DNA of 42,191 nt from Myxococcales bacterium (GTDB lineage Bacteria > Myxococcota_A > Polyangia > Polyangiales > Polyangiaceae), in assembly GCA_043779025.1 (NCBI GenBank), contig JAYWGI010000096.1, positions 1 through 42,191 on the forward strand, written 5' to 3'. The stretch's first letter is position 1. The number at the start of each line of letters is the position of its first letter. Under the pieces are notes generated by a model. That model saw only the letters and a list, made by a program, of their open reading frames with translations. It ran no database searches and had not been told where the DNA came from. Below are positions 1 to 42,177 of this stretch, one piece after another. A program made the position numbers and the translations under genes.

Positions 1-281
1 CGCTCCCCCGGATCGCTCACAATGGGCGTACCGGCATCACTCACATACGCCAGTGTTTTGCCGAGCAAAAGCTCGTCGGCGAGCGCTTGGACTTCGGCGT
101 CCGTGGAGTGGTCATGCAGCGCGCGCACGGTCTTCCCGCCCAGCTCCAGATGCGAGAGCAGGTTGCGTGTGTGGCGCGTGTCTTCGGCTACGACGATGTC
201 CGCAAGTTTGAGCGTATCGACGGCGCGGAGTGTAATGTCCCCCAAATTTCCAATGGGTGTGGACACCACGTAAAGCGTCAT
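1..281 (-). CDS. rsmI: 16S rRNA (cytidine1402-2'-O)-methyltransferase RsmI, N-terminal ~93 codons; the 3' end runs off the window
   Basis: The minus-strand frame is open to the window edge. It is absent from the ORF track because no stop lies in the window. ATG is at 281..279. The translation MTLYVVSTPIGNLGDITLRAVDTLKLADIVVAEDTRHTRNLLSHLELGGKTVRALHDH...LAYVSDAGTPIVSDPGE matches the RsmI N-terminus as I recall it (..PTPIGNL..AEDTRH..SDAGTP..DPG). Confidence 0.85.
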   Translation of the reverse strand, partial: MTLYVVSTPIGNLGDITLRAVDTLKLADIVVAEDTRHTRNLLSHLELGGKTVRALHDHSTDAEVQALADELLLGKTLAYVSDAGTPIVSDPGE

Positions 282-1306
282 GTGAGATCCGTCGCGTCGC
301 CCAGCTCTGCTTTTAGGTAGTCGCGCAGGCGCCCGGTCACACGTTGCTCAATCTGGCGCACGCGTTCGCGGGAGACACTGTAGCGATCGCCCAACTCCTG
401 CAGCGTCATGGGTTCGTCAGCCACGAGGCGTTCATCAAAAATAGCAAGCTCCTTTTCGTGCCGCAGCAGCGTGAGCCTGAAGCTCGCAAGCTTGTCCTTG
501 AGCATGGTTTGCAGTTCCTCGCCCGCGGCCAGCACCTCGGGGCCATCGGCGCTGGAGGCCAGCAAATCACCACGTGAAATGGTGCGTCCTTCGCCGTCGT
601 TGAGCGGCGCGTCCAGCGATTTCTCACCGCTCGAGAGACGGATGTCCATCTCGGTCACGTCGGTCTCCGAGACGCCAAGCTCTTTGGCGACGACCTCGGC
701 CGTGGGGCGAATCCCCATGGCTTCGAGCTGCGCTTTGGTCTTTTGCAAGTTGAAGAACAGCCGGCGCTGGTTCTGCGTCGTGCCTACCTTCACGAGGCGC
801 CAGTTGTTCAAAATGAACCGCAGCATATAGGCACGGATCCACCACGCCGCGTAGGACGACAGCTTCACCCCGCGGTATGGGTCGTAGCGCTTCACCGCTT
901 GCATGAGGCCGATGTTGCCCTCCTGCACGAGGTCCATAATGTTCTTGTACGCGCGCCGGTACTCGTACGCGAGCTTGACCACCAAGCGCAGGTTCGAGGT
1001 CACCAGCTTGGCTGCCGCTGCGGGGTCTTGATGCTCCACATAGCGGACGGCCAGGTCGCGCGTTTCGTCAGCGGTGAGCAACCGGTGGCGCTGCACCTCA
1101 CGCATGTAGGCCGCGAACGGGTCCAGGCGCGCGAGCGAGGCCTCACCGGCCTTGCCGGTACTCCGAGTGCGCACCGGCTTGATTGGGAGTTCGAGGTCCT
1201 TTTCATCGATGTCGGCGAGCAGATCCGGCTCGGCATCGTCATCCACGATTTCGGTTTCGAGTTCTTCGCCCGCGGCGGTCTGAGACTTGGGATTTTCGTC
1301 GCTCAC
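278..1306 (-). CDS. rpoH: RpoH-like (sigma-32 family) RNA polymerase sigma factor, 342 aa
   Basis: This is the C-terminal 342 codons of track ORF 278..1852. Region 2 reads DLVQEGNIGLMQAVKRYDPYRGVKLSSYAAWWIRAYM. An RpoH-box-like QNQRRLFFNLQK is present. Region 4.2 reads TLQELGDRYSVSRERVRQIEQR. I chose GTG at 1306..1304, preceded by AAGAGG with 7-nt spacing (VSDENPKSQ...). The longer ATG-started ORF would run through the divergent gene at 1397. Confidence 0.85.
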   Translation of the reverse strand: MSDENPKSQTAAGEELETEIVDDDAEPDLLADIDEKDLELPIKPVRTRSTGKAGEASLARLDPFAAYMREVQRHRLLTADETRDLAVRYVEHQDPAAAAKLVTSNLRLVVKLAYEYRRAYKNIMDLVQEGNIGLMQAVKRYDPYRGVKLSSYAAWWIRAYMLRFILNNWRLVKVGTTQNQRRLFFNLQKTKAQLEAMGIRPTAEVVAKELGVSETDVTEMDIRLSSGEKSLDAPLNDGEGRTISRGDLLASSADGPEVLAAGEELQTMLKDKLASFRLTLLRHEKELAIFDERLVADEPMTLQELGDRYSVSRERVRQIEQRVTGRLRDYLKAELGDATDLT

Positions 1307-1396
1307 GTGTATACCTCTTAGGGGCAAAGACAGGGGTCGTGTAGCACGCCCAAGCCCACGTGGGCGAGCGCTCTCCTTGCCAGTATTTCGAAGCCC

Positions 1397-2542
1397 ATGA
1401 CATCCATCCCGCCTGCCGCTCCGCACGAAGCGCTCCACCAGCCAAGCTTCGCCTTGGACGAGGCGGACTTCGAGTGGTTGCGAGGTGCGGAAAGCTCGCG
1501 CGCAGACGCGGCGGCCTTCGTGCTTCGGGTTCAGGCGTGGCTGGATGCCGAGCTCGCGGCGGTGGGGCATCACGTCGACGGCCTCAGCACCGATTTGCAG
1601 TTCGATGTGCCCTCCGGCCGGGTGCGGGTGCGGCTTGGGTTGCAGGCGCGGGGTCCACGCAGTGGCGCCACCGTAGACTTGGAGATGGATGCCGTGGGTG
1701 TGCAGGCCTACTTGGTCATCCCCACGGCGCAGCGCGGTGGGGCGTACGTAGACGCAAAAAACTTTCATGCTGCACTCGCGGATGCTGCGGGCGCCGAGCG
1801 CCTCATGAAGTCGCTGGGCGATCTGCCCGATGTGTTCGTGATGGGCGCGCACGGTAAGCTGGTCACGGTGGGTCGCGACCCTGACCCCAAACGCGTGCAG
1901 CGCGCCATCGAAGATGCCGAGCTCCGCGACCTACCGTTTCTCTTGGGCTGCTCCTTTCCGCGCGCGACCGTGATGGCCTTGGGCGAGGATCTCGCCGACG
2001 CGCTCGACACGGTGCTGATGGCGCTCCTGCCTTTGCTGCATCAGATCGCTTGGTCGCCCGACAATGATTGGCTCCCCGCCCAACCGCGTTCCAGATCGCG
2101 AAGCGCCGTCGCGCGCGCACGTCGCCGCGGCCCCCCGCGAGACGCGGAGCGACGCCGATCCATTCTGGAATCGCTTGCGCTAGACGGCGAACCTCCTGCC
2201 GACATGGCGGGCACAAACGAATCTGATCGCGCGCCGCCGCGAGTCGCACTGGCCCTGCCTCGTCCAAAGTTGCATTCTACAACTTCTACGAGGGGCCTGC
2301 GAAGCTTGGTCTCGGCCGATCGCGTCGATGCTGGAATTCCTCTCGCTGTTGGAGCCAAGGTACGCGCTTCCACCGGCGCCTTCGAGGGTAAGGTGGGCAC
2401 GGTGCTCGAACTGGACGAGGCGCATGCACGCGTCGCGTTTGGGCCACTCACGGCGCGCTGCCGCAACGATGAACTGGGCGTGGTGGTTCCCCCGCGTACG
2501 CAGCCGCCGCTTGGCAGCTCGCACCGAAAGAAGAGCAAATGA
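1397..2542 (+). CDS. hypothetical protein with Arg/Pro-rich linker and C-terminal KOW-like segment
   Basis: The ORF is 381 aa with GC3-rich coding character and no catalytic motif that I recognise. The C-terminal GAKVRASTGAFEGKVGTVLELDE..ARVAFG resembles a KOW motif. Its stop overlaps the next start (ATGA at 2539-2542). The start codon lacks a clear RBS. Confidence 0.55.
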   Translation: MTSIPPAAPHEALHQPSFALDEADFEWLRGAESSRADAAAFVLRVQAWLDAELAAVGHHVDGLSTDLQFDVPSGRVRVRLGLQARGPRSGATVDLEMDAVGVQAYLVIPTAQRGGAYVDAKNFHAALADAAGAERLMKSLGDLPDVFVMGAHGKLVTVGRDPDPKRVQRAIEDAELRDLPFLLGCSFPRATVMALGEDLADALDTVLMALLPLLHQIAWSPDNDWLPAQPRSRSRSAVARARRRGPPRDAERRRSILESLALDGEPPADMAGTNESDRAPPRVALALPRPKLHSTTSTRGLRSLVSADRVDAGIPLAVGAKVRASTGAFEGKVGTVLELDEAHARVAFGPLTARCRNDELGVVVPPRTQPPLGSSHRKKSK

Positions 2543-11995: not shown

Positions 11996-12924
11996 TGGGA
12001 TTCGTAGCTTTTTTGCTCGGGTTTTTGATCTACGGTCTGTGGGTAGCGCGCGCCTGCTTCTTCCGCGTCGACGAGGGATCTCTCGCTGTGCTGACGCGGT
12101 TTGGTGCGGCCGAGTTTGTGCCCGGGACCAAGCGACTGCACACCTACGGCCCCGGGCTTCACCCCAAGGCGCCGTGGGATCGCGCGCTTCATGTCTCGAT
12201 GAAGGAGCAGAGCCTAGATCTCTCAGGCGAGCATGGCGGGCTACTTGCGATGGCAAGCGACGGCACGGTGCTCCGCTTGGACACCGTGCTTCGCTACGTG
12301 CCGGACGAGGCGGACTTGGCGCACTTCTTGTTCGGCATGAAGGACCCGCTCACGCACATCACGCGCCTGTTCTCGTGCTTGGTGCGAAACAAGATCGCCA
12401 ACTTCCGCGCCACGGATGCCGACTCCGTTCCCGAGGGCACATCCGTCCTTAGCCATGTTCGCAGCGATGGGAGCGATGGGTCTTACGCCATGATCCGCGG
12501 CGAGCGCCAGCTGCTGAGTGAGCGCATCGAATCGTTCTGTAAAGAGCACATTGGCCAGCGCTATGGCGTGCGCTTCTACGGCGTAGACATTGTCGATATC
12601 TTGGCGCCCGACGAGCTTGCCGAGGCGCTCAACGCCGTGATCAACGCCAGCAGCGAGGCGGAGCGCGCCTACTACCGCGCAGAGGCCGCCTGTCAGGCGC
12701 GCGTCGTTGGTGCGGAGGAGGGCGTGGCAATCGCAGCGATGCGTGCCAAAGCGATGCACTCGGAGATCGTTACCCTCGGAAATTTCCTTCAGGCGGAGCA
12801 TGTGCGTGGCGAACTCGCAACCTACGTGCGTCGTCGTCGCGCGGAGGTCTTCGCGGAGTCCAGAACGCTGTACGTCAAAGAATCCGTTATTCAGCACGGT
12901 ACGCGCGTAGGAGCCCCACAATGA
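11995..12924 (+). CDS. SPFH/band-7 (stomatin/HflK/C-like) membrane protein
   Basis: 309 aa. It has an N-terminal TM (FVAFLLGFLIYGLWVA) followed by VDEGSLAVLTRFG.. and an SPFH-like core, with a coiled Ala/Glu/Arg-rich C-terminus. The start overlaps the SulP stop (TAATG). Confidence 0.75.
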   Translation: MGFVAFLLGFLIYGLWVARACFFRVDEGSLAVLTRFGAAEFVPGTKRLHTYGPGLHPKAPWDRALHVSMKEQSLDLSGEHGGLLAMASDGTVLRLDTVLRYVPDEADLAHFLFGMKDPLTHITRLFSCLVRNKIANFRATDADSVPEGTSVLSHVRSDGSDGSYAMIRGERQLLSERIESFCKEHIGQRYGVRFYGVDIVDILAPDELAEALNAVINASSEAERAYYRAEAACQARVVGAEEGVAIAAMRAKAMHSEIVTLGNFLQAEHVRGELATYVRRRRAEVFAESRTLYVKESVIQHGTRVGAPQ

Positions 12925-16908: not shown

Positions 16909-16924
16909 TGGCACGGTGCTTGCT
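16909..16924 (+). promoter_or_regulatory. sigma-54 (-24/-12) promoter for the downstream sigma-factor gene
   Basis: TGGCACGGTGCTTGCT equals the TGGCACG-N4-TTGCW consensus exactly. GG is at 16910-11 and GC at 16922-23. It lies 45 nt upstream of ATG 16969, which has a GAGGAG RBS at 16958-16963, and it is preceded by a T7 tract. Confidence 0.6.
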
Positions 16925-16968: not shown

Positions 16969-18477
16969 ATGAGCCGTCACCGCGCCGAAGCCCCCGCAGT
17001 TGCCTTTCCAACCAAAGACTTGGAGCCGATTTCCGCGCGTTCGTTCGAGCTAGAAGATCGCGGTCCGGCTTCGGTCCCCATGTCGGTGGGGCCTCGCAGC
17101 CGTATGCCCGCGAGCAAGGTTCTTGAGCTGTCGCCCTCAGAGGACGACGAGGTCGAGTCGCCATCGGAGAACGAGGGCCTCGCTCCTGAGAGCACGGTGG
17201 TTGTGCGCAGTACGCAAGCTTCGGAAGAGGGGGCGGACAACATGCTGTCTCGCTACTTCCGCGACATGTCGAATCACGACGTGATGACGCAAGAAGCCGA
17301 AGCGCAGCTCGCCAACTCGGTGGAGGATGCTGAGAGCAATCACTGGAGCACGCTGCTTAGCTACGAGTCTGAATCGGTTGCTTTGCTCAACTTCGTTGCT
17401 GGCGAGGCCGCCAAGCTTGCAGAGAGCACGGCCGTGCGCGGTTTGGCGGAGTTGACTGCGCTGTTCACCAAACGCGCTTCGGGAAAGAGTGTGCGTGCGA
17501 AGGACCTCGCAAATGAAAAAATCTGGCTGCGCGAGTTCGGTGAAGATGTGCGGCGATTGGATGTCGATCGTGAGTGGATGTACGCCGCGGCCCGTTTCGC
17601 CAAGACAGGCCGTCTTGATGGTCGCAGTTCCTCATTTGATAGCTCCGAAGACGAACAGACTTCTCGTAACGCTGTGAAGACTGAGACCGAGGACGATGAC
17701 CGTCCCAGCCTGCGTGTGGTGGATACTGCGCGTCTTGCATGGATTGCGCGCATTGACGAAAGCACCCGTGTGGTGCGCTCGGCCAAGGATCGCTTCGTGC
17801 GCGCCAACCTCCGTTTGGTCGTCTCCATCTCGCGTCGTTACAACCGTGGTCGCATGTCACTCATCGACATCATCCAGGAGGGAAACATCGGCCTTATGAA
17901 GGCGGTAGAGCGCTTCGATTACAAGAAGGGCTTCCGCTTCTCTACCTACGCGTCGTGGTGGATTCGTCACGCCATCAGCCGCGCCATGGCCGACAAAGGC
18001 CGCGCAGTCCGCGTCCCTGTGCACATGCTCGACTCGCACTACAAGGTACAGAAGATCACGTCCGCCATGCGCACTTTGGTGGGCCGCGCCCCTACGCTCG
18101 CTGAGCTTGCCGAGACCACGGGCTTGCCCGAGGACAAGCTGAGCAAGATGTTGCCTGGTGTGACGGAGACCCCGCTGTCGCTGGATCGCACGGTGGGCGA
18201 TGACGAAGGCTTACGCTTCATCGACTTCTTGGAAGACGAGAGCCCCTGCGACCCTTCGGAGCGCATGCAAAACGAGGCGTGGCGCTCGGAAGTGGAGCGT
18301 CTCATGGGCCAGCTCTCGCCGATGGAAAACCGTATCTTGCGTCTGCGTTTTGGTTTCGAGAATGAAACCGAGCTCACGCTGAAGGAGATCGGCGAGCAGT
18401 ACAACCTCTCCCGTGAACGCATCCGTCAACTTCAGGAGCAGGCGCTCGGGAAGATGCGCAAGCAGCTCGACGACTGA
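16969..18477 (+). CDS. RpoD-family (group 1/2-like) sigma-70 factor, 502 aa
   Basis: The ATG at 16969 has a GAGGAG RBS. The track start at 16846 would place the sigma-54 promoter inside the CDS. The region 1.2-like stretch is MLSRYFRDMSNHDVMTQEAE. Region 2 is IQEGNIGLMKAVERFDYKKGFRFSTYASWWIRHAISRAMAD. Region 3 is VRVPVHMLDSHYKV. Region 4.2 is TLKEIGEQYNLSRERIRQLQEQALGKMRK. Confidence 0.85.
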   Translation: MSRHRAEAPAVAFPTKDLEPISARSFELEDRGPASVPMSVGPRSRMPASKVLELSPSEDDEVESPSENEGLAPESTVVVRSTQASEEGADNMLSRYFRDMSNHDVMTQEAEAQLANSVEDAESNHWSTLLSYESESVALLNFVAGEAAKLAESTAVRGLAELTALFTKRASGKSVRAKDLANEKIWLREFGEDVRRLDVDREWMYAAARFAKTGRLDGRSSSFDSSEDEQTSRNAVKTETEDDDRPSLRVVDTARLAWIARIDESTRVVRSAKDRFVRANLRLVVSISRRYNRGRMSLIDIIQEGNIGLMKAVERFDYKKGFRFSTYASWWIRHAISRAMADKGRAVRVPVHMLDSHYKVQKITSAMRTLVGRAPTLAELAETTGLPEDKLSKMLPGVTETPLSLDRTVGDDEGLRFIDFLEDESPCDPSERMQNEAWRSEVERLMGQLSPMENRILRLRFGFENETELTLKEIGEQYNLSRERIRQLQEQALGKMRKQLDD

Positions 18478-25800: not shown

Positions 25801-26189
25801 TCAGAATCCGGGGCGCGCCAGGTCGACCACAAGATTTCTGAAGAACACGATGTGGTCAAAACCCCGGTGTAGTGATCGGATTGGGTTTTGCTTCGCTGCC
25901 CGACTTCTTGCATGTGGTCTGCAGGGATGCACCCCATGCCCTTACCGTGTTTGCTACTTGCTCCAGTGTTCATCTCGTCCTGAAGTTCGGAGTCAAAGTG
26001 GCCAACGATTTCGGCAAGGTGTGTCATGAACCCACCTGTAGCCATCGAGGCGCGCGCGGAATCCAAAGCCCTGGTGGACGGGCCCGTCTTTGGCTGGCTC
26101 AACCCAACGCTTGCAATGCGCCCGACGGTCAGGTAACTACGCCAACCCGCTCCGTTCTTGGAGCGCGACATGGCTTGGGCTTGGTTCCA
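25801..26189 (-). pseudogene. 5'-truncated, frameshifted remnant of a lipase paralogous to 24034..25131
   Basis: Frame A (the tail of track ORF 25785..26639) reads ..DWNQAQAMSRSKNGAGWR...FMTHLAEIVGHFDSELQDEMNTGASSKHGKGMGCIPADHMQEVGQRSKTQSDHYTG. A second frame continues GFDHIVFFRNLVVDLARPGF* with its stop at 25801-25803. The intact lipase reads ..SWAGVSKATGGWR...FMNPQLVLG..SLQDGLVTIESAKHGNFQGCIGADHLQEVGQPFLLAPDVWTGFDHVAFYRGIARDLGARGF*. The frame change lies in the G4T4 run (plus strand 25858-25865). The catalytic N-terminal two thirds are absent. Confidence 0.55.
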
Positions 26190-26264
26190 ATCACCATGTC
26201 CCCGCGAAGAAGCACCTCCGAAGGGTGCGTAAAACGGTTCGAAAACCAACGAAAAGAGAAGAAA

Positions 26265-26897
26265 ATGGCTCGTTATACTGGTCCTGTTTGCAAGTTGTGC
26301 CGCCGCGAAGGCATGAAGTTGTTCCTTAAGGGCGACCGCTGCGAAGGCGAGAAGTGCTCGTTCACACGCCGTGCGTATCCGCCAGGCCCCCACGGTCCTA
26401 CCGCACGCATCAAGCTGTCTGAGTACGCGGTTCGCCTGCGCGAAAAGCAGAAGGTGCGTCGCATTTACGGTGTGCTCGAGAAGCAGTTCCAAAAGTACTA
26501 TGCGGAGGCGACCCGTCGTCGTGGTCGTACCGGCGAAGAGTTGCTCAACTTGGTCGAGAGCCGCTTCGACAACGTCGTGTTCCGAATGGGCTTTGCGTCC
26601 ACGCGTTCCGAGGCTCGCCAGCTCGTGAAGCACAATCACTTCACGCTCAACGGCAAGAAAGCCAACATCCCAAGCATGCTGCTCCGAGCGGGCGACAAGG
26701 TCGTCGTGCGCGAGCCTTCACGCGCTTTGGGAAGCATCACCACGGCGATGGCTCAGGTCGAGAAGCGTGCCGCGCTCAGTTGGATCGAGCTCGACAAGAC
26801 GAACTTCACAGGCACCTTCAAGGGTCAGTTCTCGCGCGAGGAGCTCAACGAGCCAGCCATCCGCGAGCAGCTCATTATCGAGTACTACTCCCGCTAA
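26265..26897 (+). CDS. rpsD: 30S ribosomal protein S4
   Basis: The sequence is MARYTGPVCKLCRREGMKLFLKGDRC...LESRLDN-type core (VESRFDNVVFRMGFASTRSEARQLVKHNHFTLNG). The ATG at 26265 follows an A-rich GAAAAGAGAAGAAA leader. The track start at 25872 is a spurious extension. Confidence 0.95.
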   Translation: MARYTGPVCKLCRREGMKLFLKGDRCEGEKCSFTRRAYPPGPHGPTARIKLSEYAVRLREKQKVRRIYGVLEKQFQKYYAEATRRRGRTGEELLNLVESRFDNVVFRMGFASTRSEARQLVKHNHFTLNGKKANIPSMLLRAGDKVVVREPSRALGSITTAMAQVEKRAALSWIELDKTNFTGTFKGQFSREELNEPAIREQLIIEYYSR

Positions 26898-27020
26898 AAG
26901 CGTGGGGCCTCTTCATCGAGGCCCACCCTCTACACGTCGCGGAGCGCCCCGGAGAGCGGGTTCAATGGAGCGCTTGGGACGACGTGTGGCTAACCCTCAA
27001 TCAAGAAAGAGCATGCACAC

Positions 27021-28040
27021 ATGAATCTGGTTACACGCAATTGGCGCGATCTTATCCGTCCACGCGGCGTCAGCATCGAGGCGGAGACTCTCTCGCCCTT
27101 CTACGGCCGTTTTACATGCGAGCCGCTAGAGCGTGGCTACGGCATCACGCTCGGCAATTCGCTGCGCCGCGTGCTTTTGGCTTCGTTGCAGGGTGCAGCC
27201 ATCACGGCCATCCGTATCGACGGTGCGTTGCACGAGTTCACCTCGGTTCCCGATGTGCTCGAGGATGTGACCGACATCATCCTCAACCTCAAGGAAGTTG
27301 TCTTCAAGGCCCACGTCGCCAAAACCTTCACGGTTAATTTGGTGAAAGAAGGCCCCGGCCCCGTGTACGCCAAGGACATTCAGCTCGTTGACGGCCTCGA
27401 GGTGATGAACCCCGACCACCTCATCGCTACGCTCGACAAGAAAGGCCCGATGAACGTCGAGCTCACCGTCAACGTGGGTCGCGGTTACGTCTCCGCCGAC
27501 AAGAACAAGACGGCCACCATGCCGCTTGGGACCATCCCGATCGACGCGCTCTTCGCGCCCGTTCGCAAAGCCAACTACACCGTTACCAATGCACGCGTTG
27601 GACAGGTCACAGACTTCGACAAGCTTACGCTCGAAGTCTGGACCAATGGCGCTGTGGCTCCGGCAGACGCGGTGGCTTACGCCGCCAAGATACTCAAAGA
27701 ACAGCTCACCATCTTCGTGAACTTCGAAGAGACCGAAGAGATGAGCTACCAGATCGAGGGCAGCTCCGAGGAGCCGCTCAACGAGAATTTGTTCCGCTCG
27801 GTCGACGAGTTGGAGCTCAGCGTTCGTTCGGCTAACTGCTTGCAGAATGCAAATATCTCGCTCATCGGCGAACTGGTTCAGCGTACCGAGCAAGACATGC
27901 TCAAGACGAAGAACTTCGGTCGCAAGAGCCTCAAGGAGATCAAAGAGATCCTGTCCAACATGGGCCTCTCATTGGGCATGAAAATCGACGGCTGGCCTGG
28001 CCTCGTCGAAAAGTGGAAGTCGTCACAGACCGTGAACTGA
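27021..28040 (+). CDS. rpoA: DNA-directed RNA polymerase alpha subunit
   Basis: 339 aa. Matches include ..[33 protein letters not shown].. and the C-terminal domain ..[23 protein letters not shown].. Confidence 0.95.
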
Positions 28041-29210: not shown

Positions 29211-30485
29211 CTAGCGTCTCCTCATCCCGCCCATACTTGGCGCGGAGAATCGTGGTTGGTTGTAGCTCGGGCTGCTGGGCGCGATTGGCGCGGAGAACCG
29301 TGGCTGACTGTAGCTCGGGCTGCTTGGTCCGCTGGGCGCGCTTGGCGCGGAGAATCGTGGTTGGCTGTAGCTAGGCGGGGTGAAGGTTGGAGCTGGCCTG
29401 TAGCTAGGCGGCGTGAAGGTTGGGGCTGGGGCGTAGCTAGGCGCTTGGGCTTGAGGCGTGAAGGTCGGGGCGGGCCTGTAGCTAGGCGGCGTGAAGGTCG
29501 GGGCGGGCCTGTAGGCGGGTAACGTGGCTTGCGGGGCGGCGTAGCTAGGTGGTGTAAACGTTAGCGCAGGTCTTGGGGCAAGCGCTGGAGCCTGCGCAGC
29601 GGCTGACTCGGCCATGCGCACGGGGCCTGCCTTCGTCACAGCGGACGGGGACAGTCCCAATGCGCTCGGCGAGGGCGAGGCGAGCGTGGGGGTTGCGGGC
29701 TGAGGTGACCCCAGCGTGGGGGCCGCATAGGTGCGCCCTTGCCCAGGACCGCCCGAAGTGCCCGCGCCTGTCGAGCTGGGGTAGGCGGGCGGCGCAAAGG
29801 TCGTTGCGCGATGCGCGATGCGTCCCGCGTCGGGGCCACGTACGACGAACGCGCCAACATTGGGCGCAAACAACGAGCTCCGGTGGCAGTACGAATACGG
29901 CGCGTAGTAAGCCGACCCGTAGATCCAACGGGCGGATCCGCCAAACCAGTAGTAGCTGGGCCCCAGGGGCGCCCAGCCTACATAGCCCAACGGGTCGGTG
30001 CGCCACGAGACCCACGCGCCGCGATACACCGCGCCGGGCACCCATGACCAACCGTAGGCCGTCACCCAAGTCCAGCGACCATAGTGAAACGGCGCGTCGG
30101 AAAACGCGTAGGTGGAGTTCCACACATAGTCGCTCCCGTACGCCCAGTGGCCACCTGTGGTGTAGGGCACGAAGTCGGCGCCTACATACTGGGTGCTAGG
30201 AATCCAGAGCGTGCCGTAGCTAGGGTCCTCAACCCAGTTGCCGTAGGGTGCAAGCTGGCCTCGAAAGTCTTGGATGGCGTCGGCGCGCACCTCGTTGGGG
30301 TCGGGAGAGCCCAACGGCGCAGCGGGTTGCTGCGTCGTCACATCGCCGCTGCTGGCTTCGCTCTGCGCGGTTGCGGGCGCCGGCGATGCAACCGCAGCCG
30401 AACCCCCAAGCGCTGGTTGCTGCGCGACACTGGCGCTGGGGTCGAGTGCAGCAAGCAAGGTCAACGCAAGGCGTAGGGTGTTCAT
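29211..30485 (-). CDS. secreted protein: W/Y/G-rich N-terminal domain plus proline-rich tandem-repeat tail
   Basis: 424 aa. The signal peptide is MNTLRLALTLLAALDPSASVAQ. The domain reads ..LAPYGNWVEDPSYGTLWIPS...GGHWAYGSDYVWNS...HYGRWTWVTAYGWSWVPGAVYRGAWVSWR... The C-terminal 117 aa consist of PSY/PAPTFTP and SQPRFSAP repeats and end in RRR. Confidence 0.75.
   Translation of the reverse strand: MNTLRLALTLLAALDPSASVAQQPALGGSAAVASPAPATAQSEASSGDVTTQQPAAPLGSPDPNEVRADAIQDFRGQLAPYGNWVEDPSYGTLWIPSTQYVGADFVPYTTGGHWAYGSDYVWNSTYAFSDAPFHYGRWTWVTAYGWSWVPGAVYRGAWVSWRTDPLGYVGWAPLGPSYYWFGGSARWIYGSAYYAPYSYCHRSSLFAPNVGAFVVRGPDAGRIAHRATTFAPPAYPSSTGAGTSGGPGQGRTYAAPTLGSPQPATPTLASPSPSALGLSPSAVTKAGPVRMAESAAAQAPALAPRPALTFTPPSYAAPQATLPAYRPAPTFTPPSYRPAPTFTPQAQAPSYAPAPTFTPPSYRPAPTFTPPSYSQPRFSAPSAPSGPSSPSYSQPRFSAPIAPSSPSYNQPRFSAPSMGGMRRR
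29214..29564 (-). repeat. two families of in-frame tandem repeats (coding)
   Basis: About five copies of an 11-aa unit (R/A)PAPTFTPPSY are present (33-nt period, for example GTAGCTAGGCGGCGTGAAGGTCGGGGCGGGCCT on the plus strand). Three copies of a ~16-19-aa unit SQPRFSAPxAPSxPSY are also present (plus strand ...GGCGCGGAGAATCGTGGTTGG.TGTAGCT...). Confidence 0.85.
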
Positions 30486-30627
30486 GCTGGGTCTCCGGTG
30501 GGGCTGCTTTGAGGTACACGCTTCCTAGGAGTAGAACGCGCGAGCAATGCGCTTTGTTCCACGGACCGCCACGACATACACGATGCAGTTTGCCTCCATT
30601 GCCCGGGCTCGGGTACGCTTTTCTCAA

Positions 30628-31548
30628 ATGCGTTACCCTATCACGGCTTTGTTGGCGATCGGCTCCTTCGCTGTCCGGGCATTTGCCGACCCCCCGCCAA
30701 CAGTCGTCGCCCCCGCCAGCAACGGCACGGCGCCTCCCTCCGAGACTCCCACGCCAGCGGTGGCGAAACCGCCCACCGCGACCTCCCCAGAGAAGCTGCG
30801 CTTTGACCTTGTTGAGCAAGAACATCGAACGTACATCTACGCGGGGGTGCGATACCGCGGTGTTTTGCTGCCAAAGTTTATGCTCAATGCGGTCGTGAAC
30901 GAGGGAGCCAGTGTCTACTCCAATGTAATCGGTGTCGAGGCCGACTTCCGAACCAATGGGTTGAGCATCATTCCGGCGCTGAGTTTTCAAGAGTGGGGGC
31001 TGCCCGATACTTTGTTCGTCGAGAAGGGAAAGCCCGACACCGTTGCGTCCAATTGGTCGGTGGTGAACAGCAAGTTGATGGCCCTGAACGCGACGGTCGA
31101 TGTTCTTTGGTCCAAGAAACTTCGGCCCAATTTAGACTTTGAGTACGGCGCGGGGGCGGGGCTTGGAGTGGCGTTTGGGAGCCTAGGCGTGAATTGGACC
31201 TACTTTGACGAACCGGGAATCTACCGGACCTCCGACGGTCGAGGCATGTCGCCCTGCCAAACGGAATCGGGGACCGCGGCTGGCTGTACACGTCGCGAGC
31301 ATTCGTTCGCGAGTGAGGCCAAAGTGGGGGGGTATGAGGAAAAAAGCTGGATAAACGGCGGCGCAAAACCGAACCTAATCCCGTGGATCACGCCTCAGGT
31401 GGGCTTGCGCTACCGTCCTAGCCCCGAGGTCGTCACCCGACTGGGCGTGGGCGTCGCGCTGACGGGTGTCTGGTTCGGTGTCAGTGCCGACTACGGGGTT
31501 GCCGTCAAGCGACAGGCGCAAAAATCGACCGTGATCTACGAAGAGTGA
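30628..31548 (+). CDS. secreted beta-rich (outer-membrane-like) hypothetical protein
   Basis: The ATG at 30628 gives the signal peptide [20 protein letters not shown]; the track start at 30547 is probably a 5' extension. A Pro/Thr-rich linker is followed by alternating-hydrophobicity strands (..[11 protein letters not shown].., ..[19 protein letters not shown]..). Confidence 0.6.
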
Positions 31549-31561
31549 TGGGCGATTCCTT

Positions 31562-34500
31562 TTGAGAATTCCCGTTCGTTATAGGCTGTTGAAACCCTTG
31601 GGTTCGGGCGGCGCAGGTAGCGTGTGGTCGGTGCAAGATCGGGTGACGGGAGAGCGGCTGGCGCTCAAGCTTGTTCATGAAGGCGCGTCTGTGGGCGAGC
31701 TCGACGCATTGGTCCGAGAGGCAAGCGCGCTTGCAGCACTGTCACAAGCTGGGCTGCCCGGTGTGCGGGCCATCGGTCTTTTGCCGGGTACCCATCGTCG
31801 CTACCTGGTGCGCGAATTGGTTGAGGGGATCAGTTTGGACGATGTGCTCGAAAGCGACTTGCCTTGGCTGGGCGCATTCCTTTCCGCGTGCGATCAGCTT
31901 GCGCTGCTTCATCGTGCCGGGTCGCTTCACGGGGACATCAAGCCCGCCAACGTCATTGTGTCCAAGAGTGGCAGGGGGTGCCTTGTGGACTTGGGGCTCT
32001 CGGCGCCTCTCACACTTGGGGGCACACGAACGTTGGGGCTTACCCCGCGTTTTGCGGCGCCCGAGCTGCTCGAGGGCGAGCGCCTAACCGTGCGTGCCGA
32101 GGTCTATTCGGTGGGGGCAACGTTGCGCGATTGTGTCGCGCGACGCGGAGATGAACTGCGCGAGGATTTGCGCCTTGGCCTCACCCGAGCGGTGAACCGC
32201 GCGATCTCCTTGCAGCCGGCTGCGCGTCACCCGTCGGTAGACGAATTTCTTGCCGAAATTGCGGCCGTTCCGGGCGTCGAGTTGCCTGCGCGCTCGCGGG
32301 CGCTGGTTTGGCGCGTGGACGGAATTTCCGACACGGTACGTGGAATCGCCGACAGCGTACGGGCGCTGCAGCACGGACAAATACTTGGGATGTGGGGCCC
32401 CACAGGAAGCGGTCGCAGCACGCTCGGGCGCGAGCTTGCGTGGAGCTTCGCCGCCGGCGGAGAGGACGTGGTTCATATCGTCCCCGCTGTGGACCAGCGC
32501 GCGGAATTGCAGTCGCTTGGGGCCAAAGTCTTGGCGATTTATGCGGAGGAACTTGCGGCACGCCCCGATGCCGTGCTGGTTGTGGACGACTTCGATCGCT
32601 TGAGCGAAGAGTCGCGCATGGCCTTACTCGCGCTGCAAGAGGCGAAGCATCGCGCGGTGCTTGTTGGGCATGATGCGCATGCTTTTGGGGGTCTAGAGAT
32701 TGCAGCCCACTACGAGGTTCAGCCGCTGAGCATCGCGAGCCAAGAGTCCCTCGTTCGTACGGCCATCCCTTCGGCCTCACGCACGGCCGTCCTGGCGATA
32801 GTGGACCATGCAAAGGGGAGGCCCGGAGCGCTACGCGAGCTGGTGGAGCGCTGCGCAGGGAGTGCGATGGTGAGCCGTGGTGATGTTGAGCGAGCCAAGT
32901 TTGGTGCGGCGACGCACGGCACCCAAGACTGGAACGAGGTGCTGCGTTCGGCGCTCAACTCAGGCCGTTTCGCCGCGGCGCGCGTGGCGCTACAGGAGCT
33001 CGAAAAAGGAGCCGCGACGGCGCATGCTTTTGAGCGCTGCCTAGGTGAGGTGCGGGTGCGCATTGCGCAGGGCGACAACGAAGGGGCTGGTATGTGGTTG
33101 GGGCGCGCCGAGGCAGCGGGCGCAAGTCGCCACGAGCGTGTAGAAGTGCACTTGTATCGAGCGCGCTTGATGCTGCGAAGTGGCGACTATGACGGGATTG
33201 AGCCTGTGCTTTCGAGCGCCGTTTCGCTGGGTGAAGCCACCTTCGAGCTGCGCGTCGTGGCCGCGCTGGCACAAGCCATGGCGCGCCCTACTCTGCAAAA
33301 CGTTGCCGTGTTGCATGCGCTGCATCGTGACATGTCGCCCGAGCAAGGGCCGCGTGCTCGCGCCATCGCAGCAGGTTCGCTCGCCATCGCGGAGCAGCGT
33401 GCAGGGGATACCGAAGCCGCGCGCGCGCACTATGCTGAAGCGGTTGTGAACGCTGAAGAAGCGGGCGACGGCTGGGTCCTATGTTCAACTTACGTGAACA
33501 GTGCCGGCCTTGCGCACGTGGCAGGTCAAATGGTCGATGCGCTGCGCCTCTGTGAAGCCGCCATCGACCTTGCCGAACGTTTGGGTGCCGATTTGGCGGC
33601 GTATACGGCGACCCTAAACTTGATCGCTTTCAATCTTCAGCTGGGACGCTATGAGCGAGCGGCAAAAAGTATCGGCTCGCTCGAGGACTACGATCTCTCG
33701 CCCTACGCCGACGCGCAATTGTACGGCCTGCGTGCGGAGCTATTGGAGCGTGGCCTCAATTGGGACGAGGCAAGTGTAAACTACACTCAATGCGCCGAAC
33801 GCTTCCGTGCCATCGGTATGCATGCCGACGCCTGCGAAGCGGAGCTCAACTTGCTTTCGTGCGATACCGCACGGGCGCAGATCGCAAACTCAGATTTGGA
33901 GCGCCGTCTCGAGGCGTTGCGTTTGACCTCTGAAGAGGCGGGCGCGACAGAGATTCAGTCCCTGTGGAATTACGTGGCTGCTCGTGTGATGCGCCGCGTG
34001 CGGGGGCCGCACGAAGGGCTCGCCGCCTACTTGACGGCTGCAGATGTGGCGCGAAAGTCGTCTTCGAAGGAGCTGCTTTGGCAAGCATTGCAGGGCGTTG
34101 CCGAGGCGCATCGTGACTTAGGGGCGCCTGCGCTGGGGCATCGCGCGGCCACCGAGGCGCTCGAAGTATTGGAGGCGATTGCGTTGCCGTTGCCGCGAGA
34201 CCTCTGTGAGGTGTTCTGGAATGACGTGCGCCGATCGGAATTGCGTGGTCTTGCGGCCTCTCCCTCGCTTGGGGGCGTGTCCGTGGGGGCGCCCACCGTG
34301 GGGGCGGCATCGTCGATGGCCATGCAGCACTTGATCCAAAGCGCGCGTGCGTTGGTTCGAGTGCACGACCCCGAGCGAGTACTGCATGACACCTTAGAAC
34401 ACGCCGTAGCGATCGTCGGCGGTGTGCGGGGCATGCTCTACTACCGCGACCCGTTGGGCCGCCCCGCATGGGTGACGCCTTACAACTTTGAACCCGCGCA

Positions 34501-35860
34501 AAACGCGAACGTCCGGGCGCGTTTGGAGCAGTGCGCCGATTCGGGAGAAGTGCAGCTGAGCGCCGAAGGCGATGCGGGGGCATTTGTCTGCATGCCCATC
34601 CCCCGAACACCGATGCAGGTGGGGTTGTCGACCACAGTGGGCGGCCTTAACCAGGGGGCAATTTACGTGCAGACTGCAAGTACATCTCAGACACGTCTTA
34701 ACGAAAATGCAGGCGTGCTCGCTGCTCTGCTTGCGCAGGCCGCCGCGGTTTTAGACACGGCCCGTTTGGTGGCGAGACTCAAGCGTCAGAAGGAGCGCGT
34801 GTCCGAACTTTTGGACAAGCGCAGCCGCTCGCTGCATAGCTCCCGGGCAGAGTTGCGGGCGGTCAGGTCGGAGCTCAAGGAGAGCCAGAGCTTTGGCGCG
34901 ATGGTGGGAAGTTCGAAGCCGATGCGGATGCTCTTCGAAGCGATTCGCCGTGTCGCACCATCGGACATACCTGTGCTGGTGCGGGGCGAGAGCGGGACTG
35001 GAAAGGAGCTGGTCGCGCGCGCACTGCATGAGGCCTCGCCGCGGAAGGATGCGCCCTTTGTCGCGATCAACTGTGCTGCAATTCCGGCATCGGTGCTCGA
35101 AGGCGAGCTATTTGGCTATAGAAAAGGCGCGTTCACAGGGGCAACGCGAGACCACGAGGGCTTAGCGTTGGCAGCGCGTGACGGTACATTTTTTCTGGAT
35201 GAAGTGGGCGAGATGCCACTGGCAATGCAGGCCGCGATGCTGCGCGTGCTCCAGGAGCGCGTGGTGCGTCCACTTGGTTCCTCCGACGAGGTGCCGATGC
35301 GTGCGCGCGTCATCGCTGCAACGCATCGTGACCTTGCCGCGATGGTGCGCGAGGGCACCTTCCGCGAAGACCTCTACTATCGCATCGAAGTCGTCACACT
35401 GCACGTGCCGTCGCTTCGGGAACGCCGCGAAGACATCGGACTGCTTGCCGACTCCTTTTTGCGACGCGCGAGTGTGGCGCACAATCGTCCTCGAAAAACG
35501 TTGAGTCGTAGTGCTCGCGAATTGCTGATGTCCGCGCCCTGGCCCGGCAACGTGCGTCAGCTGGAGCATACACTGACTTCCGCTGTGCTCTTCTCGGATG
35601 ACGAAACGCTGCATGCGGCAGACTTGAACCTTGTGCGCGCCGACGCCGAGACTCCTATGCGTTTGGGCACCGTGCCTAGCGGCAAAGATGTGGCCGGGTT
35701 GAGCTCCCAGCTGTGTGACAAGGAGCGCTGTTTGCAGGCCCTGGAAGTCGCGGGGGGCAATCGTGTTCGCGCGGCGAGTGCACTCGGAATCCCGAGACGA
35801 ACCTTCTATAGGCGCCTCGCAGAACTCGGAATTGGCGCAAAAATCTCAAAAAAAGCCTAG
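31562..35860 (+). CDS. multidomain regulator: Ser/Thr protein kinase - P-loop NTPase (STAND-like) - TPR-like helical region - GAF - sigma-54 AAA+ activator - Fis-type HTH, 1432 aa
   Basis: The kinase has [27 protein letters not shown] (HGD at 31928-31936), VDLGLS and FAAPELL. The P-loop is [14 protein letters not shown] (Arg codon at 32414-32416 where Lys is expected), with Walker [12 protein letters not shown] long Ala/Leu-rich helical repeat region follows. The GAF-like stretch is ..[31 protein letters not shown].. The EBP has [25 protein letters not shown] (35126-35143), [19 protein letters not shown] and FREDLYYRI. The HTH is [26 protein letters not shown]. The only possible starts upstream of the glycine loop are TTG codons (31562 or 31589). 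Confidence 0.85.
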
Positions 35861-41090: not shown

Positions 41091-41133
41091 TGTACACTTG
41101 AGCGTTGCCCGGGCTTCCACAACGCCCCTCTCT

Positions 41134-42177
41134 ATGAGACGCTCAAAACTAAGCGCGATGGCCGAGAAGAAATCCGAACATCAGACCGAACGCGAGGTGG
41201 TAAAGCCTCGCGCTTCCTTGTTGCCGGGAGACTTGTCGGGCTTTCGGCTTTCGTCGATCCCATCGATCGACGAAAACGATGTACCTACCGAAGAAAAGGT
41301 GCCGACGCTCGCCTCCTTGGGTGGTGAAGCCTGCGGAATACTCACTGTGCTCAGCGGGTTCAATGCAGGGCAAGTTCAGGTGCTCGCGGTCGGCGACTGC
41401 GTGGTTGGCCGAGGCCAGGACGCCGATTTTTGGGTCGACGATGCGGGCGTCAGTCGTAAGCACTCGCGGTTCATCAAGCGAGGGGACAGCTTCTACGTAG
41501 AGGACTTGGGGTCCACCAATGGCACGTTTGTCGACTCCCAAAAAGTGGTGGGCGCGCAGCGGTTGGGCCCATCGCATCGTGTGCAGTTGGGGGCCTCCGT
41601 GCAGGCCTCTTTCGAGATCGTCGACGTGGCCCAGGCGCTGCTCCGAAAGCGCCTTTACGACACGTCTACCCGAGATGCGCTTACGGGTGTCTATACCCGA
41701 AAGTATTTTTTGGACCGCTTGCCCACGGAGATCGCCTACGCGCGCCGTCACCGCAGCGAACTTGCGCTTTTAGGTATCGATATCGATCACTTCAAAAAAG
41801 TAAACGACACCCATGGCCATGCTGCTGGCGACGCGGTACTCCGCGGTGTGGCCGATCGACTGCTGCAGCTTATTCGAATCGAAGACGTGCTCGTCCGCTT
41901 CGGCGGCGAAGAGTTTTTTATCTTGGCTCGAACCACCGAGGCCGTGCAGTCGGGGGCGCTGGCGGAGCGTATCCGCCGCGCGATTGAGATATTTGTTGTA
42001 CCGTTTGAGCTTACGCCTTTGAGCGTCACGCTGAGCATCGGGGCATGCAACCTCTCGGAGGTTGCATCGGGCGACGCCGAAGAGTTCTTACGTATCGCAG
42101 ACACGCGCATGTACACCGCCAAGCAAACCGGACGAAACCGCGTGTGCTTCAAGGATCCGCTACCTGTTTCCGAATAG
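41134..42177 (+). CDS. FHA-domain diguanylate cyclase (GGDEF) with RxxD I-site
   Basis: The FHA region is ..VVGRGQDADFWVDDAGVSRKHSRFIKRGDSFYVEDLGSTNGTFVD.. The GGDEF region is ..DALTGVYTRKYF...IDIDHFKKVNDTHGHAAGD..RIEDVLVRFGGEEFFIL. GGEEF is at 41902-41916, and RIED at 41875-41886 lies five residues upstream. The start is uncertain (TTG 41098, ATG 41134 or ATG 41158). Confidence 0.85.
   Translation: MRRSKLSAMAEKKSEHQTEREVVKPRASLLPGDLSGFRLSSIPSIDENDVPTEEKVPTLASLGGEACGILTVLSGFNAGQVQVLAVGDCVVGRGQDADFWVDDAGVSRKHSRFIKRGDSFYVEDLGSTNGTFVDSQKVVGAQRLGPSHRVQLGASVQASFEIVDVAQALLRKRLYDTSTRDALTGVYTRKYFLDRLPTEIAYARRHRSELALLGIDIDHFKKVNDTHGHAAGDAVLRGVADRLLQLIRIEDVLVRFGGEEFFILARTTEAVQSGALAERIRRAIEIFVVPFELTPLSVTLSIGACNLSEVASGDAEEFLRIADTRMYTAKQTGRNRVCFKDPLPVSE

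Follow-up and report, generated by a model that had tools for sequence, protein, structure and literature searches.

A predicted single-chain Ser/Thr kinase and sigma-54 activator from a conserved, uncharacterised family of Polyangia

The gene described here lies on the plus strand of a 42,191-nucleotide stretch of DNA (contig JAYWGI010000096.1 of assembly GCA_043779025.1, from a Myxococcales bacterium of the Polyangiaceae), the whole of which is referred to as the window. In its product, a Hanks-type kinase comes first, followed by a compact P-loop NTPase and a TPR superhelix, and the chain ends in the three parts of an enhancer-binding protein (EBP), namely a GAF domain, a sigma-54 AAA+ domain and a Fis-type helix-turn-helix (HTH). 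A gene for a predicted exported protein, called the partner here, lies directly upstream on the same strand. The positions of these features are collected in Table 1. An earlier reading of the DNA sequence (the initial annotation) had proposed a single chain of six modules, and each of the motifs that it quoted for the kinase, the NTPase and the EBP was located in the translation.

Table 1. Positions of the features in the window; residue numbers are those of the 1432-amino-acid protein
Feature	Position	Strand	Remarks
Kinase-NTPase-TPR-GAF-sigma54 AAA+-HTH gene	31562..35860	+	1432 amino acids, TTG start, no transmembrane segment
Hanks-type Ser/Thr kinase, ~residues 4-245	31571..32296	+	Pfam Pkinase 7-192, E 6e-21
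Kinase HGD	31928-31936	+	Non-RD motif
Kinase DLG	31988-31996	+	In place of DFG
Compact P-loop NTPase, ~residues 255-447	32324..32902	+	STAND/AAA+-like; AlphaFold2 model, Foldseek
Walker A GPTGSGRST, residues 279-287	32396..32422	+	Arg at the Lys position
R285 codon CGC	32414-32416	+	Within Walker A
Walker B VLVVDD, residues 338-343	32573-32590	+	DD pair invariant across homologs
TPR-like alpha-superhelix, ~22 helices, ~residues 457-899	32930..34258	+	AlphaFold2 secondary structure, Foldseek, Pfam
Divergent GAF, ~residues 916-1062	34307..34747	+	Alignment to Pfam-positive GAFs; AlphaFold2 and Foldseek
Helical linker from GAF to AAA+, ~residues 1063-1113	34748..34900	+	Continuous helix in AlphaFold2 model; alignment gap
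Sigma-54 interaction AAA+ plus lid, residues 1114-1356	34901..35629	+	Sigma54_activat, AAA_lid_14
GAFTGA, residues 1189-1194	35126-35143	+	Sigma-54 contact loop
Fis-type HTH_8, residues 1388-1421	35723..35824	+	Pfam HTH_8, E 6e-10
Partner gene, exported beta-rich protein, 306 amino acids	30628..31548	+	ATG matches public call P0121
Sigma-70-family factor gene (regions 2, 3, 4), long N-terminal extension	16970..18477	+	Downstream of site 16909-16924

The stretch 31562..35860 (+) is one open reading frame (ORF) of 1432 codons with zero internal stops, and its codon-position composition is even over the full length. Database searches returned at least 120 homologs of 1420-1570 amino acids that align over 99% of the window protein, a count that is to be read as a lower bound. 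An assembly or frameshift artefact joining two or more genes would have nothing in its favour save the unusual length and the TTG start. It is contradicted by the open frame with its uniform composition, by these homologs, which are colinear and come from NCBI, JGI, ENA and Logan assemblies, and by a homolog in the complete genome of Labilithrix luteola DSM 27648. The comparative data already refute such an artefact, the probability of which we regard as negligible. As so many colinear, full-length homologs occur in independent assemblies, the single chain of six modules is real, as initially proposed. An ortholog with 67% identity (P0002), which was assembled independently, also has identical gene neighbours (contig L081).

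TTG is the sole type of start codon before the glycine-rich loop (G-loop) of the kinase, as had been noted, and 13 nucleotides separate the upstream stop codon from the TTG at 31562. The public gene call (P0001, 1420 amino acids) begins 12 codons later, at 31598, and drops an 'xPxRY' segment together with the first beta-strand of the kinase. Because homologs keep xPxRY ahead of the G-loop, and because P0002 begins with MKFPVRYQALRPLG, the sequence comparison supports the TTG at 31562 over the shorter public call. No stretch of the protein is hydrophobic enough to suit a membrane helix, and the regulator is therefore predicted to be cytoplasmic.

All of the at least 120 homologs have the same Pfam content as the window protein, and their named sources are Labilithrix, Polyangiaceae, Polyangiales and Polyangia. 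Most belong to a main clade (P0003-P0120) with a median pairwise identity of 62%. The window protein and P0002 form a separate branch with approximately 40% identity to all main-clade members. The L. luteola homolog (L001, 5935..10464; 1509 amino acids) carries HGD, DLG and GPRRAGRTT at the sites discussed below. Seemingly full-length matches in six loci (L006-L008 and L072-L074) were left out of these counts; on inspection, two of them (L006 and L072) proved to be separate kinase and EBP genes and were rejected as full-length homologs. The homologs have been given only generic names ('PknK', 'transcriptional regulator with GAF, ATPase and Fis domain', 'sigma 54-interacting transcriptional regulator').

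The NTPase-TPR module was also compared with 1.84 billion representative proteins in an index-free HMMER search. This gave 182 matches at E<=1e-3, of which 29 reached E<=1e-30. Nearly all were either proteins of approximately 1420-1530 amino acids that carry the module in the corresponding place or pieces of such proteins. In addition, a sister family of approximately 1650-1715 amino acids was found in public metagenomes (P0233, P0235-P0237, P0246, P0248, P0250 and others). Its members share the order Pkinase-AAA_16-TPR-GAF-Sigma54-HTH_8, the HGD kinase, and either Lys or Arg in Walker A, but have a larger AAA_16-type nucleotide-binding oligomerisation domain (NOD) and DFG instead of DLG; with the window protein they share sequence similarity in the TPR region alone (E 1e-13 to 1e-17).

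The initial annotation could not place the six-module layout and called for a survey of it. The layout turns out to be common in public data, where it is annotated automatically, and it is shared by the colinear homologs in Polyangia and, in the same domain order, by the sister family. By sequence, the window protein is a divergent but ordinary member of a conserved, uncharacterised Polyangia family. Among the publications covered by the literature searches, none gave a functional or descriptive account of this kinase-EBP family. Surveys of myxobacterial genomes and kinomes reportedly mention fusions of kinases with sigma-54 activators. What the present analysis adds is the family-wide use of Arg or Lys in Walker A, the conserved partner gene, and the trimmed GAF domain of the lineage to which the window protein belongs.

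The kinase domain (residues 4-228) finds its best PDB sequence matches in PknA and PknB of Mycobacterium tuberculosis (E 3e-17). All of the features by which a Hanks-type kinase is recognised (G-loop, beta3 Lys, D-x-K-x-x-N, Mg-binding Asp and APE) are present: GSGGAGSVW at 14-22, LALK with K36, HGDIKPAN at 123-130, DLG at 143-145 and APE at 166-168. The Arg that precedes the catalytic Asp in RD kinases is absent, HGD being found in the window protein and in 120 of 120 homologs, and the domain thus belongs to the non-RD subclass while staying within the Hanks-type superfamily. DLG is nearly as general (118/120). In the alignment, therefore, HGD and DLG are signatures common to the whole family and not oddities of the window protein. 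The G-loop glycines, K36, D125, K127, N130, D143 and APE are shared by 117-120 of the 120 homologs, and we infer from this conservation that the non-RD kinase is catalytically competent, in agreement with the initial view that it is non-RD yet complete. Non-RD and DLG motifs are known from active kinases.

The region between the kinase and the GAF domain was assessed by profile searches and structure prediction. AAA_22 (residues 271-361, E 5e-7) was the sole Pfam family to pass its cutoff in the NTPase, with 30.6 bits against 27; nSTAND3, nSTAND5, nSTAND6 and AAA_16 all stayed below their gathering scores there. The repeats were matched weakly by TPR_12 and TPR_MalT (residues 592-701). An AlphaFold2 model of residues 245-930 (pLDDT 90.4, pTM 0.88) has, in this order, a P-loop core of five strands, a lid of four helices and approximately 22 TPR-like helices, which is the STAND layout of a P-loop nucleotide-binding domain followed by a repeat sensor. 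The top Foldseek match of this model was the STAND-TPR protein PH0952 (6mfv, E 1.3e-8, 719 columns), followed by small subunits of RFC, the AAA+ clamp loader, and by the TPR proteins LGN, OGT and APC subunits.

Walker A of this NTPase reads GPTGSGRST and is accompanied by Walker B VLVVDD, so that the reported combination of an Arg at the Lys position with an intact Walker B was found as described. Neither GPTGSGRST nor the corresponding sequence in 110 of the 120 homologs fits the canonical GxxxxGK[ST]. The codon for R285 (CGC) is two substitutions from any Lys codon, and the Arg is therefore not due to a single-base error. Across the family, position 285 is Arg in 110 of 120 homologs and Lys in the remaining 10, always followed by [ST]T. 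The Lys proteins are scattered, and their nearest neighbours, with 76-87% identity, have Arg, which indicates several independent switches between the two residues; Lys and Arg are likewise mixed in the wider set from the exhaustive search. A degeneration of the P-loop peculiar to the window protein is consequently not supported, since Arg is the family norm and is exchanged with Lys among such close relatives.

The rest of the nucleotide site is strongly constrained. In an alignment of 46 sequences with approximately 30% identity to the window protein, G279, G284, T287, D342, D343 and the lid residues P421 and R425 are invariant, and the site is therefore best described as conserved, not decayed. 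We read this pattern as purifying selection on a nucleotide site that appears to need a basic residue at position 285, but not specifically Lys. That the NTPase is a switch and not a hydrolase, as had been suggested, is plausible. Lys-to-Arg substitutions engineered into Walker A, RecA K72R being one example, usually spare nucleotide binding but abolish most of the hydrolysis; such behaviour would fit a binding switch.

These data bear on whether the kinase, the Arg-bearing NTPase or both have no catalytic activity and do no more than offer a GAF-regulated EBP surfaces for dimerisation or sensing. HGD in place of HRD, DLG in place of DFG, Arg in place of the Walker A Lys, and the weak Pfam matches of the NTPase would all agree with a pseudoenzyme scaffold of this kind. 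Each catalytic residue of the kinase, however, is invariant in the 120 homologs. The P-loop Gly and Thr residues, the Asp pair of Walker B and the Pro and Arg of the lid are invariant too, and position 285 admits only basic residues, a pattern that would be unusual for decayed sites. We therefore consider a scaffold without enzymatic activity distinctly unlikely.

The assignment of a GAF domain required evidence beyond profile searches. No Pfam family, including GAF, GAF_2 and GAF_3, matched residues 901-1113 even at E<=10, and the same region of P0002 likewise gave no GAF match. The equivalent region of the family member P0003 is a clear GAF_2 (E 1e-15), and a MAFFT alignment shows that both ends of the region in the window protein are homologous to it. 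Compared with proteins of the main clade, the domain has a deletion of approximately 13 residues and an insertion of approximately 8; the deleted segment is the near-invariant ERLAxAVSVHQLM stretch of that clade. The helix joining the GAF to the AAA+ domain is shortened as well, by 14 residues. An AlphaFold2 model of residues 915-1115 (pLDDT 86, pTM 0.73) has a continuous helix at model residues 136-200. Foldseek matched it best to the GAF domain of NifA (8jrc, E 1.5e-6) and then to that of Aquifex aeolicus Nlh1 (4g3k); GAF structures of PDE2/5/6 and DosS were also matched, and all of these matches had a probability of 1.00. On the strength of the homolog alignment and of the match between model and GAF structures, the domain is real but trimmed in the lineage of the window protein. 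Of the two domain assignments that had been open to doubt, the P-loop has weak Pfam matches and a structural model behind it, and the GAF stands by alignment and model while being too divergent in sequence for Pfam to detect.

The C-terminal module was found to be fully canonical, as first described. Sigma54_activat (PF00158) matches residues 1114-1280 with E 2.9e-67 and covers model positions 1-167 of 168, and AAA_lid_14 follows at residues 1286-1356 (E 1e-20). Walker A (GESGTGKE, 1142-1149), Walker B (FLDEVGEM, 1211-1218), GAFTGA and HTH_8 are all present. Many NCBIfam equivalogs of named EBPs align over the last ~350 residues with up to 334 bits, all below their trusted cutoffs, which indicates that the protein is an EBP yet not an ortholog of any named one.

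The gene directly upstream had been described as outer-membrane-like and treated as incidental. Its ORF begins at 30547 in the mechanical ORF list, and the ATG at 30628 was taken as the start. The sequence predicts a signal peptide (AVRAFA|D), a Pro/Thr-rich linker and a Gly-rich body with two invariant Cys and an amphipathic beta-strand pattern. No match was obtained in Pfam, NCBIfam, PADLOC or PDB sequence and profile searches. Relatives, all of them called 'hypothetical', fell into 64 clusters in a single-sequence search and 92 in a profile search; two bear an added N-terminus with PEGA and TPR.

In 14 of the 15 loci examined (the window, L081, L001-L005, L082/83 and L085-L089), the gene immediately before the kinase-EBP gene, in the same orientation, is a partner homolog, and the two are 3 to 205 nucleotides apart where the genes were called. 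The remaining locus (L084) has the two genes 5 kb apart. The upstream gene is thus a conserved partner and not an incidental neighbour. Each locus carries one copy of the kinase-EBP gene, and no terminator-like site was seen between the two genes in the window. Because the lineage of the window protein keeps only this pair, with no terminator between its genes, the partner and the kinase-EBP gene are, by gene order, a conserved core unit.

Main-clade loci share a divergent Abhydrolase_1 gene as well, and in many cases an AhpC/Redoxin gene follows downstream and PrkA is close by. The abhydrolase and AhpC neighbours were rejected as parts of the core module, as both are absent near the window gene. 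A shared sequence between the abhydrolase and partner genes (GTGTAGCAT) was considered as an operator and likewise rejected; it reads TGcTACACT on the minus strand and is absent from the window. The motif, (A/T)GT(G/A)TAGCAT(C/G), occurs at approximately 6960 in L082, 6975 in L084, 6950 in L085, 3975 in L086, 3850 in L087, 3665 in L088 and 2330 in L089. From its sequence, we infer that TGcTACACT is an extended -10 element of the divergent abhydrolase gene.

Several other genes around the pair were recorded. One locus, from a Polyangia metagenome-assembled genome, contains a second Pkinase-GAF-Sigma54 gene (L088, 1..2409 (-); 1358 amino acids, cut by the locus end) adjoining the abhydrolase/partner/kinase-EBP cluster, which indicates that paralogous kinase-EBP fusions can neighbour each other. 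Directly upstream of the partner in the window is a DUF6600 gene (29211..30485 (-)); DUF6600 is also found near the cluster in L086. The window further encodes, at 41098..42177 (+), 5 kb downstream of the kinase-EBP gene, an FHA-GGDEF protein, in which a phospho-threonine reader is fused to a diguanylate cyclase and which is a conceivable substrate of the kinase. The window also contains rpsD and rpoA, which places the locus in the core chromosome and not in an island.

The kinase, STAND-like NTPase and TPR parts occurring together in a multicellular bacterial lineage could also be taken for a STAND-type conflict or defence sensor (Avs/NLR-like) with a transcriptional effector. Avs3 appears at Foldseek rank 31, and residues 13-744 match a candidate 'kinase' model of PADLOC weakly. 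The other PADLOC matches are generic (kinase and RtcR/PspF sigma-54 AAA+ domains), none was obtained for the partner, and the genes are syntenic with housekeeping genes: rpsD and rpoA in the window, and PrkA, AhpC and ATP synthase in relatives. The 62% median pairwise identity of the main clade is also unlike that of fast-diversifying defence genes. On the PADLOC outcome and the genomic context we rejected a defence function, which is very improbable.

Sigma-54 promoters were sought in the 900 nucleotides upstream in 11 loci and in intergenic regions, on both strands. Nothing convincing was found upstream of the partner/regulator operon, and autoregulation through such a promoter was rejected. 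Over 14 loci, matches to at least 10 of 11 consensus positions were limited to one at 16909 in the window and one each in L002 and L084. The match in L084 (TGGCACAGGCGTGGCA, 12751-12766 (+), 10/11) lies 87 nucleotides upstream of the kinase-EBP start in that locus. The window site is the sole perfect match there to TGGCAC-N5-TTGCW (TGGCACGGTGCTTGCT, 16909-16924 (+)); 12 of 100 shuffled sequences gave at least one match. It lies inside a 385-nucleotide divergent intergenic region, 46 nucleotides before an ATG that is preceded by GAGGAG, and approximately 15 kb from the kinase-EBP gene. From this arrangement, the gene at 16970..18477 is possibly a sigma-54-dependent sigma factor gene, and the site is at best a candidate target of the regulator. 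A second sigma-70-family gene (regions 1.2-4) was also recorded in the window, with 278..1852 (-) and 25872..28040 (+) as the coordinates listed.

Parts of the window protein resemble three groups of known regulators. With EBPs of the GAF type (NifA and A. aeolicus Nlh1) it shares, in its C-terminal 520 residues, the GAF domain, the long helix, the AAA+ domain with GAFTGA and the Fis-type HTH, and the alignment to the NifA equivalog model covers residues 1030-1423. It differs from them in approximately 915 additional N-terminal residues (kinase, NTPase and TPR) and in a trimmed GAF that Pfam does not see. The order of N-terminal Hanks kinase, P-loop NTPase and TPR-type sensor is that of M. tuberculosis PknK and of STAND kinases. 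'PknK', found on many homologs, is an automated JGI name, and the likeness to PknK (Rv3080c) is one of domain order and names only. PknK has no GAF-EBP output, and the NTPase of the window protein, in contrast to that of PknK, is compact, without an evident winged helix, and belongs to a family with mostly Arg in Walker A. MalT, AfsR and PH0952 similarly couple a P-loop NTPase and a TPR/SUPR sensor to a DNA-binding output. Unlike MalT and AfsR, with their LuxR or SARP DNA-binding domains, the window protein has an ATP-driven sigma-54 AAA+ ring as its predicted output and holds two different P-loop modules plus a kinase. TM-scores of the model to PH0952 (6mfv) are low (0.32-0.34), which indicates similar parts in a different overall arrangement.

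The reading that we favour, with a probability of roughly 0.6, is that the protein is a single-chain sigma-54 activator in which a PknK-like STAND kinase is joined to a NifA/Nlh1-like GAF EBP, co-transcribed with the partner and driven by the NTPase switch. It builds on the observed domain order, residue conservation, Arg/Lys interchange at Walker A and conserved gene pair, and its mechanism is drawn by analogy with STAND proteins and GAF-type EBPs. EBPs of the latter type that have a long helical linker, Nlh1 for example, are inactive until the GAF frees the AAA+ domain for hexamerisation. In STAND proteins, among which PknK is listed as a STAND kinase, binding of an inducer to the sensor opens the NOD, which leads to ATP binding and multimerisation, and hydrolysis resets the protein (PMC4381067).

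In the proposed sequence of events, the GAF and the long helical linker would keep the AAA+ domain non-hexameric and inactive at rest. A ligand or partner protein acting on the TPR sensor would flip the NTPase to a nucleotide-bound, self-associating state, and this self-association would gather protomers and favour assembly of the AAA+ ring against repression by GAF and linker. The ring would then open sigma-54 promoters elsewhere in the genome by means of GAFTGA and ATP hydrolysis. Once protomers are clustered, the non-RD kinase would probably phosphorylate its own protein or partner proteins. The Walker A Arg may keep phosphate binding and probably slows hydrolysis, which would give a long-lived binding switch and not a fast timer.

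A different division of labour was also weighed, in which the STAND-like switch activates the kinase toward separate substrates, such as FHA proteins, and the GAF-EBP responds independently, the fusion merely co-localising two outputs. STAND proteins, PknK among them, usually carry the effector on the N-terminal side of the NOD (PMC4381067), the C-terminal GAF-AAA+-HTH part is a complete EBP by itself, and the FHA-GGDEF protein is encoded nearby. That neighbour, however, is missing from the ortholog contig L081, and the six modules are strictly colinear in two sister families, which argues for functional coupling between them. We accordingly find two independent outputs unlikely.

Several points nevertheless weigh against a single switch-driven activator. 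In the DSSP trace of the model, the TPR region is separated from the final strand of the core by four helices alone, with no beta-hairpin among them; no winged helix is evident in this model, and because its hairpin is not seen, the NTPase, initially called STAND-like, does not appear to be a textbook NOD. The near-invariant GAF segment of the main clade is missing, and GAF-mediated control may for this reason differ or be lost in the lineage of the window protein. The partner is predicted to be exported and the regulator has no membrane segment, which makes a direct physical link between them hard to explain. Neither the window nor 12 related loci showed a sigma-54 promoter close to the gene pair, and no biochemical or genetic study of any family member was found in the literature.

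A bolder version of the switch-driven activator would make the locus a novel module, in which a STAND-type binding switch tolerant of Arg or Lys drives the sigma-54 ring, the kinase tunes it, and the co-transcribed, exported partner ties it to the state of the cell envelope. We regard this as rather unlikely. If true, it would amount to a form of EBP control distinct from receiver phosphorylation, from ligand sensing by GAF, PAS or V4R domains, and from anti-activators.

Myxobacteria are known for very large sets of Ser/Thr kinases and of sigma-54 activators. The kinase-EBP family would be a physical fusion of these two networks with a nucleotide switch between them, and lends itself to studies of how sigma-54 transcription receives input from phosphorylation and from oligomerisation of the STAND type. 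The natural interchange of Arg and Lys at position 285 can be seen as an evolutionary experiment on the need for the canonical Walker A Lys. As the cultured L. luteola DSM 27648 has an ortholog with the same motifs, these ideas are testable.

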